From a virus, in the IMG/VR virus record IMGVR_UViG_3300045988_130695, positions 1-43,531 of that record: a DNA stretch of 43,531 nucleotides; one strand, written 5' to 3'. Positions within the stretch are counted from its first letter, which is position 1. The number at the start of each line of letters is the position of its first letter. This document shows positions 2,866 to 37,269 of the stretch, piece by piece. The notes below the pieces were generated by a model. The model worked only from the letters and a program-made list of their open reading frames with translations. It was not told where the DNA came from and did no database searches. The position numbers and the translations under genes are program-made.

Positions 2866-3327
2866 TCACCTGCTCGCTGCTATAGCTCCTACTAATACCC
2901 CTCCTGCAAATCCCCAAAAGGCCTTCTGTCTCTGCTTTAATTCACTTCTGGACTTTTCTTGTTTTATTTGAATGCTCAACGTCTGCAAGGATTTGTTTTG
3001 CTCTGCTATTGTTTTTTTGGAGTTCGACAATGATTCCTGCGCAAGCATTAGCTCGCTCCTTATCTTCTGATAAGATAAACGCTGCTCTTCGATTAGCTTC
3101 TTCAGCTCGTTCGAGTTCATCTGCTGCAGTTCCAACGTGTTCGATAGCCCTATCAACAGATTTTCCTGTCTGTTTATTATCGTCTGCAATTCGTTGAACT
3201 GTTCCCTGGACATCGTTATTGTTTCCGGAACTTCCTCCGCAAAACAATTTAAAGAAAATGATAAGCACAGCAATAAGGGCAAAACTAATAACAAGATACT
3301 TGCTATACCTGATTTGTTTTTCTTCAT
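2866..3327 (-). CDS. ORF A (153 aa): signal-peptide-like N-terminus, Leu-rich coiled coil, Gly-zipper C-terminal TM (GFAGGVLVGAIAA)
   Basis: ATG start. It shares 2942..3327 with ORF B in another frame. It uses ATA/AGG codons that are rare in the capsid gene. Its unique 3' tail (2866..2941) does look coding. Confidence 0.4.
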   Translation of the reverse strand: MKKNKSGIASILLLVLPLLLCLSFSLNCFAEEVPETITMSREQFNELQTIINRQENLLIGLSNTLELQQMNSNELKKLIEEQRLSYQKIRSELMLAQESLSNSKKTIAEQNKSLQTLSIQIKQEKSRSELKQRQKAFWGFAGGVLVGAIAASR

Positions 3328-3349
3328 TCACTTTCCGCCCTTCTTTCAA
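2942..3349 (-). CDS. ORF B (135 aa): N-terminal TM anchor (YLVISFALIAVLIIFF) plus helical charged ectodomain, i-spanin-like topology
   Basis: TTG or GVG-type start. First codon positions are G-rich and Ile codons are ATT/ATC, as in the capsid gene, so this frame looks like the primary coding frame across the overlap. Confidence 0.5.
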   Translation of the reverse strand: MKEGRKVNEEKQIRYSKYLVISFALIAVLIIFFKLFCGGSSGNNNDVQGTVQRIADDNKQTGKSVDRAIEHVGTAADELERAEEANRRAAFILSEDKERANACAGIIVELQKNNSRAKQILADVEHSNKTRKVQK

Positions 3350-34559: not shown

Positions 34560-36440
34560 CTAAAATAAATTTATCGGTATCTCGGCTTCTGCTGCTATAC
34601 CTTGCATAACATATAGTGCATTAGGTAGAGCTATTCCATTGCCCCACATCTTGTACTCTGCGCTGTCCGTATGCAATTTGTTATACCAGGTAAGTATTTG
34701 TGCTTTTGTGTAGTCTTTAACGGCTTTGTTGTTGATTTTTGCATAGGCATTACGCACTTCAATCCAAAATTTATATTCTTCATCAGTGAAACTTTCTTTT
34801 TTATTAAGATGTCCCCATAAATCAGGGAAACCTTGAAGTCTTGCGCATTCGGTGGGGGTTAAGCGGCGTACTATGTAACGCGCCTGCACTGCCGCCGGTC
34901 GGTCTATAGTATTCAGCGTGTAGCACTCATTTTCTCGCCAGCCTTTGTCGTTACAGCCTGCCGTATCTGCTCGATCTATGCCGTTACCTTGCAGACAGTA
35001 AACAACACCTGGTACATTATTGCCGCCTGTACCGCATCTTGCGGTTAAGGTAGGCGTTTTTTCTATGTATTCGCTCGGAGTACGTAACCTGGCTTCTCCT
35101 ATGTCATAACAACGTACTGCAGGTTCGACGACTAAACACGTATAATCCGTAATTCGATTGTTATGGTCTCCTGTAATAGTGCTTACGATTTGACCATCAC
35201 CGTTGCCCCTTGCATCGTATACTACGGCTGGGACAGCACCTGCTCTCAGTGTAGGGCTTTGTTCTTCTGCATAGCCTACACCTCTTGTTTTTGCGCTTTC
35301 TTCTGGACAAAAACCAGCGGATACAGTTATACATGGCGGGTTTTTATAATGCGTTGCTTTCAGACAGGGGGCTGTATCGCTCTGCCGTGCGTACTCAGTT
35401 TGACCACCGATATTGTCAACGATAATCGGCTGGAACAGGTATTGATCGTTGTTTGTCGCCAGTGTGGCGGTTTTGTCCTTTTGAACCAGTGCGCCCTTAC
35501 AGCCGCCTTCACAGCCTGAGCGTATTTTTAAGGTGTAAGGGATCATTGCACAGGGATAACCTTGTCCCGCTTGAACTTCAATATTTTCAACAATGAAAGT
35601 TTGCTGTTTCATCCCAGGTTCAGCTTGTATACATCCAGCTTTTTCGCCTAAGTCCCTAATCTCATTTCGTTGATTCTGTGCAAATGCGATTAAAGAGTCG
35701 CTTTCTCCCGCTCGATCATCTGTTCCAACGCAGTTTTGAGCATCGGCGGCAATTCCTTGCCACGGCGTTCTGCCCGCCTCAAAATACCCTCGCAGGCTTT
35801 CGCGCTTAAATAGTATTTCTTGGGCACATTCGCCTCTAAAATCTGCGACAAGGTAGATTCTACGGCGGCGCTGGGGGACTCCCCAATATTGCGCGTCAAA
35901 AACTCGGTATGCAATGCTCCATCCGTCTCCACTGATACAATCTGCATATGCCCAGCCAGCTTGTGGAACCGCAGGCATAACGGCGTTCGGTTCCGTGATT
36001 TTAATAAATTCTTCAAGCACAAGCCGGAAATCTTCTCCCCGATTACTGCTAAATGCTCCTGGTACATTTTCCCAAACAGCGAATCTTGGATAAATTCCAT
36101 TTGTTTTAACCCTCATTTCTTTTATTATTCGGATTGCCTCCATAAACAGCCCGCTTCGTGTTGTTTCTTCGTCGCCGACAGCCGTATGTTTTAAACCAGC
36201 ACGTTTACCAGCTACTGACATGTCTTGACATGGGCTTCCGAAAGTTATAATGTCCACTGGTTCTATCTCTGCACCTTTGATTCTGCTTACATCACCCAAG
36301 TGCTTCATATTTGGAAAACGGCTTTTAGTAACAGCTATTGGATATGGTTCGACTTCCGATGCATAAACAGGCTCTATTCCGCACAAGCTTGCTGCTAAAG
36401 GAAATCCTCCACTGCCATCAAATAAGCTCATTAGTTTCAT
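34560..36440 (-). CDS. DNA (cytosine-5) methyltransferase, large, with several TRD-like modules (probably multispecific, orphan)
   Basis: Motif I LFDGSGGF, IV GSPCQDMS, VI ENVPG, VIII QRRRRIYLV, IX RRLTPTECARLQGFP, X GNGIALP. About 330 aa lie between VIII and IX, with repeated (S/T)xTL-type elements. No restriction endonuclease gene is nearby. Confidence 0.85.
   Translation of the reverse strand: MKLMSLFDGSGGFPLAASLCGIEPVYASEVEPYPIAVTKSRFPNMKHLGDVSRIKGAEIEPVDIITFGSPCQDMSVAGKRAGLKHTAVGDEETTRSGLFMEAIRIIKEMRVKTNGIYPRFAVWENVPGAFSSNRGEDFRLVLEEFIKITEPNAVMPAVPQAGWAYADCISGDGWSIAYRVFDAQYWGVPQRRRRIYLVADFRGECAQEILFKRESLRGYFEAGRTPWQGIAADAQNCVGTDDRAGESDSLIAFAQNQRNEIRDLGEKAGCIQAEPGMKQQTFIVENIEVQAGQGYPCAMIPYTLKIRSGCEGGCKGALVQKDKTATLATNNDQYLFQPIIVDNIGGQTEYARQSDTAPCLKATHYKNPPCITVSAGFCPEESAKTRGVGYAEEQSPTLRAGAVPAVVYDARGNGDGQIVSTITGDHNNRITDYTCLVVEPAVRCYDIGEARLRTPSEYIEKTPTLTARCGTGGNNVPGVVYCLQGNGIDRADTAGCNDKGWRENECYTLNTIDRPAAVQARYIVRRLTPTECARLQGFPDLWGHLNKKESFTDEEYKFWIEVRNAYAKINNKAVKDYTKAQILTWYNKLHTDSAEYKMWGNGIALPNALYVMQGIAAEAEIPINLF
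35690..36100 (-). CDS. Embedded +1-frame ORF (136 aa) inside the methyltransferase gene; candidate overprinted gene
   Basis: ATG 36100 has GAGGG 9 nt upstream. The frame is open through motifs VI-VIII of the host gene. The C-terminal third is protein-like (TLSQILEANVPKKYYLSAKACEGILRRAERRGKELPPMLKTALEQMIE). Confidence 0.35.
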   Translation of the reverse strand: MEFIQDSLFGKMYQEHLAVIGEKISGLCLKNLLKSRNRTPLCLRFHKLAGHMQIVSVETDGALHTEFLTRNIGESPSAAVESTLSQILEANVPKKYYLSAKACEGILRRAERRGKELPPMLKTALEQMIEREKATL

Positions 36441-36645: not shown

Positions 36646-37269
36646 TCAAAACGGTTCTGACTTATTAGTGTTCAGATTCTCAAAATGTTCTTCCCCTAAA
36701 ATCTGTAGTTCTGCCATATCTGCAGCAAGGTTATATATTTTTGCATGCTTATTATTTCCATGTGTATCGGAAACCTTAGCTCTAAATTCGGCAATAGTCC
36801 CTAAGAAACAACCACAAGACACTGTTATACCTTTGTCTTTATTTTTGAAAAATGTCGTAAAACTAAATCTACTACCAATGCGACCGATCAATAAATAGTC
36901 AGCGTCGCCGTACACCCTAGCGTTGCCGCACACCCTAGCGTCGTCGCACACCCTAGCGTTGCCGCACACCTCAGCGTCGTCGCACACCCTAGCGTTGCCG
37001 AACACCCTAGCGTTGCCGCACACCCTAGCGTTGCCGAACACCTCAGCGTCGTCGCACACCTCAGCGTCGTCGCACACCCTAGCGTTGCCGAACACCCTAG
37101 CGTTGCCGTGCACCCAAGCGTTGTCGTCTTGCGCTAAGTTGTCCTCTTTTTCTACATATCCTCCAAGTTCACCAGCTTCAACATTTCCAAAGCTAATTAA
37201 AGCCTTAATCCTAAATAATTTCTTGCCCCATTTTTCTATAAACTCTGCTGTTAACTCATACTTTTTCAT
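36646..37269 (-). CDS. Hexapeptide-repeat (left-handed beta-helix-like) phage protein, 207 aa
   Basis: About 13 consecutive 6-aa units (GNARVF/GNARVC/DDAEVC), with conserved N- and C-terminal flanks seen in many Firmicute phages (from memory). AAGGAG SD. Confidence 0.7.
   Translation of the reverse strand: MKKYELTAEFIEKWGKKLFRIKALISFGNVEAGELGGYVEKEDNLAQDDNAWVHGNARVFGNARVCDDAEVCDDAEVFGNARVCGNARVFGNARVCDDAEVCGNARVCDDARVCGNARVYGDADYLLIGRIGSRFSFTTFFKNKDKGITVSCGCFLGTIAEFRAKVSDTHGNNKHAKIYNLAADMAELQILGEEHFENLNTNKSEPF
36896..37128. repeat. Tandem 18-bp DNA repeats (about 13 units, consensus CACCCTAGCGTTGCCGCA) encoding the hexapeptide repeats
   Basis: Read directly. Units differ at only 1-4 positions and fall into two alternating subtypes (..CCTAGCGTTGCCG.. 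and ..CTCAGCGTCGTCG..). Confidence 0.9.

Follow-up and report, generated by a model that had tools for sequence, protein, structure and literature searches.

The 43,531-nucleotide stretch of viral DNA analysed here (positions 1 to 43,531 of IMG/VR record IMGVR_UViG_3300045988_130695, hereafter the window) encodes a C5 cytosine DNA methyltransferase on its minus strand, and a second open reading frame (ORF) lies wholly inside that gene, in the +1 frame of the same strand. This nested ORF, 35690..36100 (-), is very probably a real, translated overlapping gene. Comparison of homologues shows that its open frame is under selection and that its start codon and Shine–Dalgarno sequence are conserved, across hundreds of homologues and several bacterial phyla. 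Selection on the protein is concentrated in a segment of about 45 residues near the end of the nested product, hereafter the tail. Taken as a whole, the explanation that we favour, and that we regard as fairly probable, is a nested second gene that is independently started and whose product works with the methyltransferase.

A second ORF inside a methyltransferase gene

The methyltransferase is encoded by a 626-amino-acid ORF at 34560..36440 (-), which matches PF00145 (E 1.6e-38), TIGR00675 and phrog_116. Motifs I through X all lie in the single frame 0 of this ORF, with motif I (FDGSGG) at amino acids 7-12, motif IV (SPCQD) at 69-73, motif VI (WENVPG) at 123-128, motif VIII (QRRRR) at 190-194, motif IX (RRLTPTECARLQGFPD) at 525-540 and motif X (GNGIALP) at 600-606. 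Between motifs VIII and IX lies a long, variable, multi-module region. A linker, RGECAQEILFKRESLRGYFEAGRTPWQGIAADAQNCVGTDDRAGESD, at 35694..35837 (-) (amino acids 202-249), joins motif VIII to the first target-recognition domain (TRD) module.

The nested ORF has an ATG start, 136 codons and a TAA stop, and is in frame +1 because it is offset by 340 nucleotides from the methyltransferase ATG. An earlier note on this DNA had described this ORF, with a GAGGG 9 nucleotides upstream, and the ORF list and the sequence bear the description out. Its translations are also right: WENVPG is read as FGKMYQ in the alternative frame and YWGVPQRRRRIYL as NIGESPSAAVESTL. Upstream, the open frame is bounded by a +1-frame TGA at 36113..36115 (-), 5 codons before the nested ATG and in the same place in nearly all homologues. 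Numbering residues and codon positions of the nested frame as 'alt', the ORF falls into an N-part (35858..36097 (-), alt amino acids 2-81) that runs over methyltransferase motifs VI-VIII, the conserved tail STLSQILEANVPKKYYLSAKACEGILRRAERRGKELPPMLKTALE (35723..35857 (-), alt amino acids 82-126), and an unconstrained end with the TAA (35690..35722 (-), alt amino acids 127-136), where the position of the stop shifts by a few codons among homologues. The tail is under purifying selection in the +1 frame and is predicted to form a helix-loop-helix. It opens with a doubly constrained junction of 7 codons (35837..35857 (-)), at which alt STLSQIL lies over methyltransferase IYLVADF.

An open frame of this length is not expected by chance. 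Resampling the synonymous codons of the window methyltransferase according to the usage in that gene gives a +1 frame free of stops across these 137 codons in 0.2% of 20,000 trials (P ~0.002), with 4.8 stops expected. Over the whole methyltransferase coding sequence, the +1 frame contains 38 stops, and its longest open run is the nested ORF (140 codons), followed by a run of 75. The nested ORF is also the sole same-strand ORF of at least 100 amino acids that is fully nested in a longer ORF within the window. A second such case had been proposed at 2942..3349 (-); this 135-amino-acid TTG ORF overlaps a 153-amino-acid ATG ORF, 2866..3327 (-), in part and is not nested.

The frame under selection switches at the tail

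Our codon alignment was guided by the nested product, with 66 unique sequences at first and then 138, and has no indels in the tail. Diversities and codon counts were taken without tree correction, but relatedness cannot by itself shift the variation from one codon position to another. In the N-part, diversity at alt positions 1/2/3 is 0.24/0.46/0.29 among the 138 unique sequences. It is the third position of the methyltransferase codons that varies, which is what selection on the methyltransferase alone would give, and amino-acid identity is 0.46-0.50 in the alt frame as opposed to 0.67-0.73 in the methyltransferase frame. By codon diversity in the same 138 sequences, we find no alt-frame purifying selection on alt amino acids 2-81.

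Over the tail, the frame of selection is the other one. Diversity at alt positions 1/2/3 is 0.21/0.16/0.40 in the 138 sequences, the variable position is now the alt third, which is position 1 of the methyltransferase, and diversity at the methyltransferase third position falls about three-fold. Codons in which alt position 3 is more diverse than position 2 number 19, against 59 with the reverse order, in the N-part; for the tail, the two counts are 36 and 9 (Fisher p 1.9e-9). Amino-acid identity switches along with them, to 0.74-0.76 in the alt frame versus 0.45-0.50 in the methyltransferase frame. At the STLSQIL/IYLVADF junction, diversity is near zero at all three positions, with an identity of 0.905 in the alt frame and 0.80 in the methyltransferase frame. 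The final ten alt codons have diversities of 0.55-0.61 at all three positions. The selected product is thus the tail of about 45 residues, with the consensus STLSQILE..VP.KYYLS.KAC.GILRRA..RGK.LP..L..ALE.

The switch is found again at larger evolutionary distances. Among ten sequences from four host phyla, tail identity is 0.52 in the alt frame versus 0.31 in the methyltransferase frame, and in each of the 45 pairs the alt value is the higher one. A second, independent set of 13 phages, most of them from Proteobacteria, has diversities of 0.24/0.42/0.29 upstream and 0.33/0.28/0.49 in the tail (29 codons against 11). The codon patterns show that purifying selection of the coding type acts on the tail. 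The earlier note had singled out the last ~50 residues as the meaningful part, which agrees with the selection seen on alt amino acids 82-126. Its suggestion that the alternate frame may be conserved holds at the protein level for the tail, whereas the first ~80 residues are only kept open, and the suppressed synonymous variation that it had proposed to look for over 35690..36100 appears in the last third (35723..35857) and not in the rest.

The methyltransferase frame over the tail has the opposite character. In the linker stretch, diversity is highest at methyltransferase codon position 1, and the methyltransferase-frame residues are unrelated among the window, P1, CP-T1, Bcep22 and Omega, whereas the alt residues align. 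The well-known conserved frame-0 'EILFE' is, by sequence arithmetic, the -1 reading of alt KYYLS. Judging from these alignments, the sequence of linker amino acids 202-249 is largely dictated by the +1 frame, and frame 0 is carried there as a passenger.

These patterns also bear on whether the nested ORF functions as a gene at all. It could instead mark a nucleotide-level element, such as an RNA structure or a DNA site, or be the decaying remnant of an ancestor with a split methyltransferase gene like that of locus L079, described below. The N-part, which is not conserved as a protein, fits such a reading. Variation in the tail, however, follows a strict three-base period, with changes at alt third positions that keep alt amino acids, and the methyltransferase-frame residues there are unrelated across phyla; this is the signature of a protein-coding sequence and not of an RNA or DNA one. 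Decay would bring stops and loss of the start; the reverse is seen in the loci, in nearly all of which the long methyltransferase ORF is intact. Sequence comparison has largely refuted this non-coding or relic alternative, which we consider the least probable of those weighed here.

An open leader

Although the N-part is not conserved in sequence, it stays free of stops. In 82 of 83 loci, the +1 frame runs without interruption from the conserved TGA to a stop that lies 122-137 codons beyond WENV, the exception being the IMG/VR lineage L076. The null probability of an open +1 frame ranges from 0 to 0.2 per homologue, and the +2 frame has 1-15 stops over the same full-length spans. For the N-part (~80 codons) taken separately, the frame is open in 33 of 34 lineages defined at <90% identity, versus 4.7 expected from a mean null probability of 0.14. 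That the +1 frame would be stop-free in diverged homologues, as had been anticipated, is thus borne out despite wide synonymous differences. Taken together, the stop counts and the codon diversities indicate that the N-part is held stop-free by selection and is not conserved as a protein.

Start signals

The nested start is built from methyltransferase codons. The ATG (36098..36100 (-)) is made from AAT|GGA (Asn114-Gly115), and the Shine–Dalgarno-like GAGGG (36110..36114 (-)), 9 nucleotides before it, comes from the codons ATG AGG G.. (Met-Arg). The start site is conserved: in 70 unique homologue contexts it is ATG in 65 and GTG in 2, and is lost in 3. In about 150 of 155 loci the methyltransferase has an xAT codon here, for Asn, Asp or His, and in one locus AAC, although only 59% of the Asn, Asp and His codons across the window methyltransferase gene end in T. 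Similarly, the Arg codon that forms GAGG is AGG in 64 of the 70 contexts, as opposed to only 4 of 39 Arg codons gene-wide. The two signals tend to be lost together. In the region 20-30 nucleotides before WENV, CGA stands in place of AGG in the IMG/VR lineages L036 and L076 and the nested ATG is gone too, while in a third IMG/VR lineage, L084, the codon is AGA, GAGAGG is still there and the nested ATG is gone. All three keep the tail, and L076 has two +1-frame stops in its N-part and a downstream ATG (MSDTRR...). In P1 and CP-T1, a GGAG stands 7-8 nucleotides before a nested ATG that is made by the '(N)A' of LxNAID, although the nearby methyltransferase residues differ. The start sits elsewhere there than in the window's family, so this problem has been solved more than once.

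An alternative route to the tail is programmed +1 ribosomal frameshifting near motif VIII, which would yield a truncated methyltransferase consisting of motifs I-VIII plus the tail and would make the upstream open frame and ATG incidental. The three lineages that hold the tail without the upstream ATG, together with the stops in the N-part of L076, are what such a route would allow, and the nucleotides of the IYLVADF/STLSQIL junction are nearly invariant at all three positions. Against it, the 80 upstream codons are open far more often than expected (33 of 34 lineages against 4.7), ATG or GTG and the Shine–Dalgarno sequence are conserved and tend to vanish together, and the upstream ATG is the one used by gene callers and by fused relatives. 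Within the QRRRR codons, the third positions of the methyltransferase frame are free to vary (0.55-0.58), so that no slippery or hungry-codon motif is conserved, and a shift at QRRRR would remove the core strand IYLVADF. We reject programmed frameshifting as the main route on the strength of the conserved leader, ATG and Shine–Dalgarno sequence and the absence of a conserved slippery motif, and regard it as very improbable. Start signals that are kept and lost jointly, with a leader held open by selection, point instead to independent initiation of the nested ORF.

Distribution and annotation of the nested ORF

The nested ORF is widespread, with a counterpart in each homologue looked at. As a protein query, the 136-amino-acid product gives 1248 matches at E<=1e-3, mostly 131-145 amino acids long and 60-100% identical. 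Small Firmicute proteins of this kind, which the earlier note had described, therefore exist, but in the contexts inspected they are gene-caller calls of the nested ORF itself and not separate genes. In two NCBI contigs from metagenome-assembled genomes (L001 4001..5484 and L002 4001..5502), the methyltransferase ORF is intact at 615-620 amino acids, while the annotation holds the nested ORF and the C-terminal 302-337 amino acids of the methyltransferase only, leaving the catalytic N-half unannotated. That the matches are stand-alone genes or pseudogene fragments is ruled out in the inspected contexts, since the methyltransferase ORF is intact in L001, L002 and most of 173 loci. Nor are they mostly frame-shifted pseudogenes, a concern raised earlier: 123 of the 173 score outright as having the long methyltransferase ORF unbroken and the nested ORF inside it.

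The tail follows the methyltransferase. A methyltransferase-seeded scan of IMG/VR, with N-domains 50-95% identical to the window, gave 79 loci, and the tail is present in all 79. Searching the 64-amino-acid tail query against 1.84 billion cluster representatives (50% identity) gives 3680 clusters at E<=1e-3, of which 826 are at E<=1e-10, and tblastn against GenBank phages finds the tail in 138 records. Their hosts include Ruminococcus, Faecalibacterium, Streptococcus, Vibrio, Mycobacterium and Escherichia, as well as Pseudomonas, Pectobacterium, Burkholderia, Roseobacter and Morganella. By a genome scan, the window's own lineage is placed in gut Clostridia, for example Oscillospiraceae, Acutalibacteraceae and Ruminococcaceae. 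Throughout, the tail is found only inside this methyltransferase family.

Frame arithmetic on annotated phage methyltransferase coding sequences puts the tail in frame +1 in 14 of the 14 checked, namely CP-T1 gp12 (Vibrio), Javan105_0033 (Streptococcus), P1 dmt, Omega gp127 (Mycobacterium), Bcep22 gp25 (Burkholderia), CRP-821, PSTRCR_117lys, K459, Mecenats66, CobraSix, zjk6, PCA1, PhAER-6 and vB_Mm5. With 82 of 83 loci open and the tail in 79 of 79 seeded loci and 14 of 14 annotated genes, the suspicion that this is an overprinted gene, with a +1 frame conserved across the family, is supported. In the distant annotated phages the nested ORFs span 134-180 codons, except in Curvibacter PCA1, where the ORF has 99 codons and no ATG. 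In a T4-like Morganella phage of 37% GC, the alt frame is still open for 134 codons. In P1 dmt (L089 2162..2650, equal to NC_005856 66713..67201), a nested +1 ORF of 162 codons ends in the conserved tail and contains GGAG-N7-ATG at NC_005856 66728 (L089 2177); it is absent from the reference annotation.

In some mycobacteriophage records the tail is covered by a gene annotated separately. The Omega nested ORF matches phrog_16143, a 139-position 'DNA methyltransferase' family, at 5e-11; this family may itself be made up of annotated nested ORFs, and for that reason we do not count it as independent evidence. In another mycobacteriophage, Schatzie (L091 1327..2850), an HNH endonuclease gene interrupts the methyltransferase gene, and the depositors remark 'coding region not determined; unable to determine intron boundaries'.

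Gene architectures

We distinguish three arrangements of the locus. In T1, the window type, a single long frame-0 ORF contains the nested ORF; the 123 loci mentioned above belong here outright, as do most of the 36 loci missed by the motif IX pattern. In T2, the N-half and C-half are separate ORFs in the same frame and the nested ORF is present, as in L003-L005, L023 and Omega gp127/gp128, and likewise in L006, which is truncated. In the near-identical JGI/ENA contigs L003-L006 and the identical IMG/VR locus L023, a stop after the linker splits the methyltransferase, the stop of the nested ORF overlaps the ATG of the C-half (ATGA), and the C-half has its own GGAGG.

In T3, the N-half is in frame 0 and the nested ORF runs in frame into the TRD, motif IX and motif X. 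In L079, an alpha ORF of 277 amino acids and a beta ORF of 316 amino acids, the latter comprising the nested ORF, TRD, IX and X, overlap across about 160 codons. Judged by their size and by where the tail lies, ~30 of the 150 best 50%-identity cluster representatives look T3-like, with 340-480 amino acids and one of 726. Motifs IX and X are present in 22 of the 23 T3-like sequences read, P0263 ending without either, and 8 open with the same conserved ATG (MEFIQ.SLFGK..). In the five T3-like proteins searched, Pfam recognizes no part of PF00145 but its IX-X end. This recurrent fusion to the TRD, IX and X half of the enzyme provides, we infer, a Rosetta-stone type argument that the small protein acts with the methyltransferase.

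A plausible, though speculative, history is that of a T3-like split enzyme whose C-half later joined the frame of the N-half via the unconstrained stretch after the tail, so that the tail would have ended up on a short ORF of its own.

A further group of proteins (P0129, P0165, P0191, P0246, P0253 and FP_Toutatis gp14) passes from the N-half to the alt frame at points that differ between them, frequently at G-runs, and continues through the tail. We take these fusions to be sequencing errors, pseudogenes or possibly real variants and kept them out of the evidence. Circularly permuted family members also occur, with motifs I-II (SLFDGIGGFPL...) after X, in the Faecalibacterium phage FP_Toutatis (L087 2099..3510) and in P0193, P0223 and P0256. 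FP_Toutatis gp14 is annotated in the nested-ORF frame, which its motifs IV-VI enter after a change near a G-run. In the window itself, the ORF immediately upstream of the methyltransferase (36646..37269 (-), 207 amino acids) consists nearly entirely of GNARV(F/C) and DDAEVC pentapeptide-like repeats.

Predicted structure and similarity searches

An AlphaFold2 model of the nested product, built from the 66-sequence alignment, has a predicted local distance difference test score of 42-55 for residues 1-90, 75 for 91-100 and 91-93 for 101-130. The confident part consists of two helices, 100-113 and 119-135, with the GKELP loop between them, and disorder is predicted for the leader. Searches of Pfam, NCBIfam and PHROGs with the nested product gave no significant match save phrog_16143; one of 66 nested-ORF members matches NCBIfam PRK10458, at E 0.21. 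For the tail, we find no significant match in Pfam, NCBIfam, PDB sequences or PDB folds: the PDB sequence search with two profiles returned chance matches only (antibody light chains, nucleoprotein), and Foldseek of the AlphaFold2 model against the PDB returned nothing at E<=0.001.

The earlier note proposed that the tail resembles the element that opens the TRD region of C5 methyltransferases, which in Dcm/EcoRII-type enzymes has the pattern TL.QLL..V..KY.LT... Using hhalign, we set two profiles of the tail against E. coli Dcm and against a Dcm profile of 20 sequences. The register is the same each time, with the tail aligned to the stretch from 282-292 to 338, between motif VIII and the TRD, at 32% identity, but the E-values of 0.027, 0.025 and 0.16 are not significant, even profile versus profile. 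The Dcm profile gained little because the search for it gave only orthologues at least 74% identical. Of the proposed resemblance, then, the constant register stands and statistical support does not. That the tail is homologous to this stretch of Dcm is, from these alignments, an unproven lead.

Discussion

In the mechanism that we propose, ribosomes would start independently at the internal GAGGG-N9-ATG, between methyltransferase motifs V and VI. They would then read about 80 leader codons over motifs VI-VIII, a leader that would only have to lack stops, and would go on to translate the helix-loop-helix tail of ~45 residues before reaching the stop. The methyltransferase frame over the tail would serve as a passenger linker between motif VIII and the TRDs, and the small protein would act as an accessory or complementing subunit beside the TRD/small domain. 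The subunit role is suggested by the confinement of the tail to one methyltransferase family, by the recurrent in-frame fusion to TRD, IX and X, and by the two-polypeptide precedents M.EcoHK31I and M.AquI. We put the chance that the small protein is a methyltransferase subunit or cofactor at about even.

Several points weigh against this proposal. Translation of the nested ORF is deduced from sequence, and the subunit role solely from association and fusion. The frame-0 protein has all ten motifs, so the need for a partner is not obvious. The tail's lack of a significant match to known sequences and folds, and the non-significant alignments to Dcm, count against the subunit role in particular, and the fused forms could partly be frameshift mutants or assembly errors. 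In L036, L076 and L084, the nested ATG is lost and the tail kept, so that another start or expression route must, as far as these genomes indicate, serve the tail at least there. Finally, there is no clear reason why an 80-codon unconstrained leader should be kept over a start near the tail.

Some of the same points would fit a nested ORF that is translated into a product independent of methylation chemistry, such as one that regulates the expression or timing of the methyltransferase, binds DNA or has an anti-defence role and is simply carried in the methyltransferase gene. Overprinted phage genes commonly encode accessory functions (reviewed in PMC8227390), the tail would be a small basic helix-loop-helix with no detectable similarity to known methyltransferase elements, and the frame-0 methyltransferase already has its full set of motifs. 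As opposed to this, the tail occurs only in this methyltransferase family (79 of 79 seeded loci and 14 of 14 annotated phage genes), and repeated in-frame fusion to TRD, IX and X would be unexpected for an unrelated role. We consider such an independent function unlikely, though far less so than frameshifting or a non-coding element.

The proposal of a nested gene whose product works with the methyltransferase can be extended across the family. In that extension, the cross-phylum C5 methyltransferases of phages and mobile elements, including P1 Dmt, would be obligate two-component enzymes whose second part is a nested protein of ~135-160 amino acids, with a 45-amino-acid helical hairpin that completes or positions the TRD/small domain. 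We offer this tentatively, as somewhat less than an even bet.

Two enzymes provide the closest comparisons. As described in two reports, the beta chain of M.EcoHK31I is encoded wholly inside the alpha gene in another frame, from internal starts, and its N-terminal ~42 amino acids are dispensable (PMC2836561, PMC3404938). As in the window, a small chain is thus encoded fully within a C5 methyltransferase gene in another frame, and the dispensable N-terminus of beta resembles the unconstrained leader. Unlike M.EcoHK31I, in which motif IX is on beta and absent from the large chain, the window methyltransferase has motif IX in frame 0 and the nested product lacks it; the nested product carries another element, over motif VIII and the linker, in a comparison made by description. 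The literature, furthermore, regards M.EcoHK31I as exceptional, whereas the window arrangement spans a large phage family. M.AquI, according to the published account, is split after motif VIII, with I-VIII on one side and the distal variable region and IX-X on the other (PMC3404938). A similar split after motif VIII is seen in the relatives L003-L006, L023, Omega gp127/gp128 and L079, but the window gene is unsplit, with motifs I-X in its single 626-amino-acid ORF. By its defining features the window gene falls outside both types, and by analogy it may work like them.

Among other overlapping genes, E. coli dcm (2030899..2032317) overlaps the functionally linked vsr (2030448..2030918) in another frame. 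That overlap covers just 20 nucleotides at the 3′ end, and Vsr is a mismatch endonuclease, unlike the nested product. In the Rz/Rz1 pair of phage lambda, a small gene is wholly embedded in the +1 frame of a larger one, and both are translated and act together. The nesting logic is the same as in the window, while the function is unrelated (spanins) and the interaction of the products, proven there, is a deduction here. A full-text literature search of incomplete coverage found no report of the nested ORF, whether for phage C5 methyltransferases or for P1 dmt. Nested or overlapping genes for C5 methyltransferase subunits are known and supposedly exceptional; what is new here is the element supplied, its position over motifs VI-VIII and the linker, and its wide distribution.

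Gene callers already mishandle this locus, some of them calling the nested ORF and dropping the N-half of the methyltransferase. As a clean, deeply conserved same-strand overlap in double-stranded DNA phages, with a sharp switch in the frame of selection and a leader of 80 codons that is held open yet free of constraint, it offers a benchmark for finding overlapping genes and for the evolution of overprinting. Should the nested protein be both made and needed, the phage cytosine methyltransferases of a large family, P1 dmt included, are mis-annotated as single-gene enzymes, and the overlap could be a hidden cause of failure for codon-optimised or tagged constructs, in which silent recoding would abolish or alter methylation. 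The idea is directly testable in P1. If it is true, M.EcoHK31I would be no isolated curiosity but one case of a recurrent C5 methyltransferase design.

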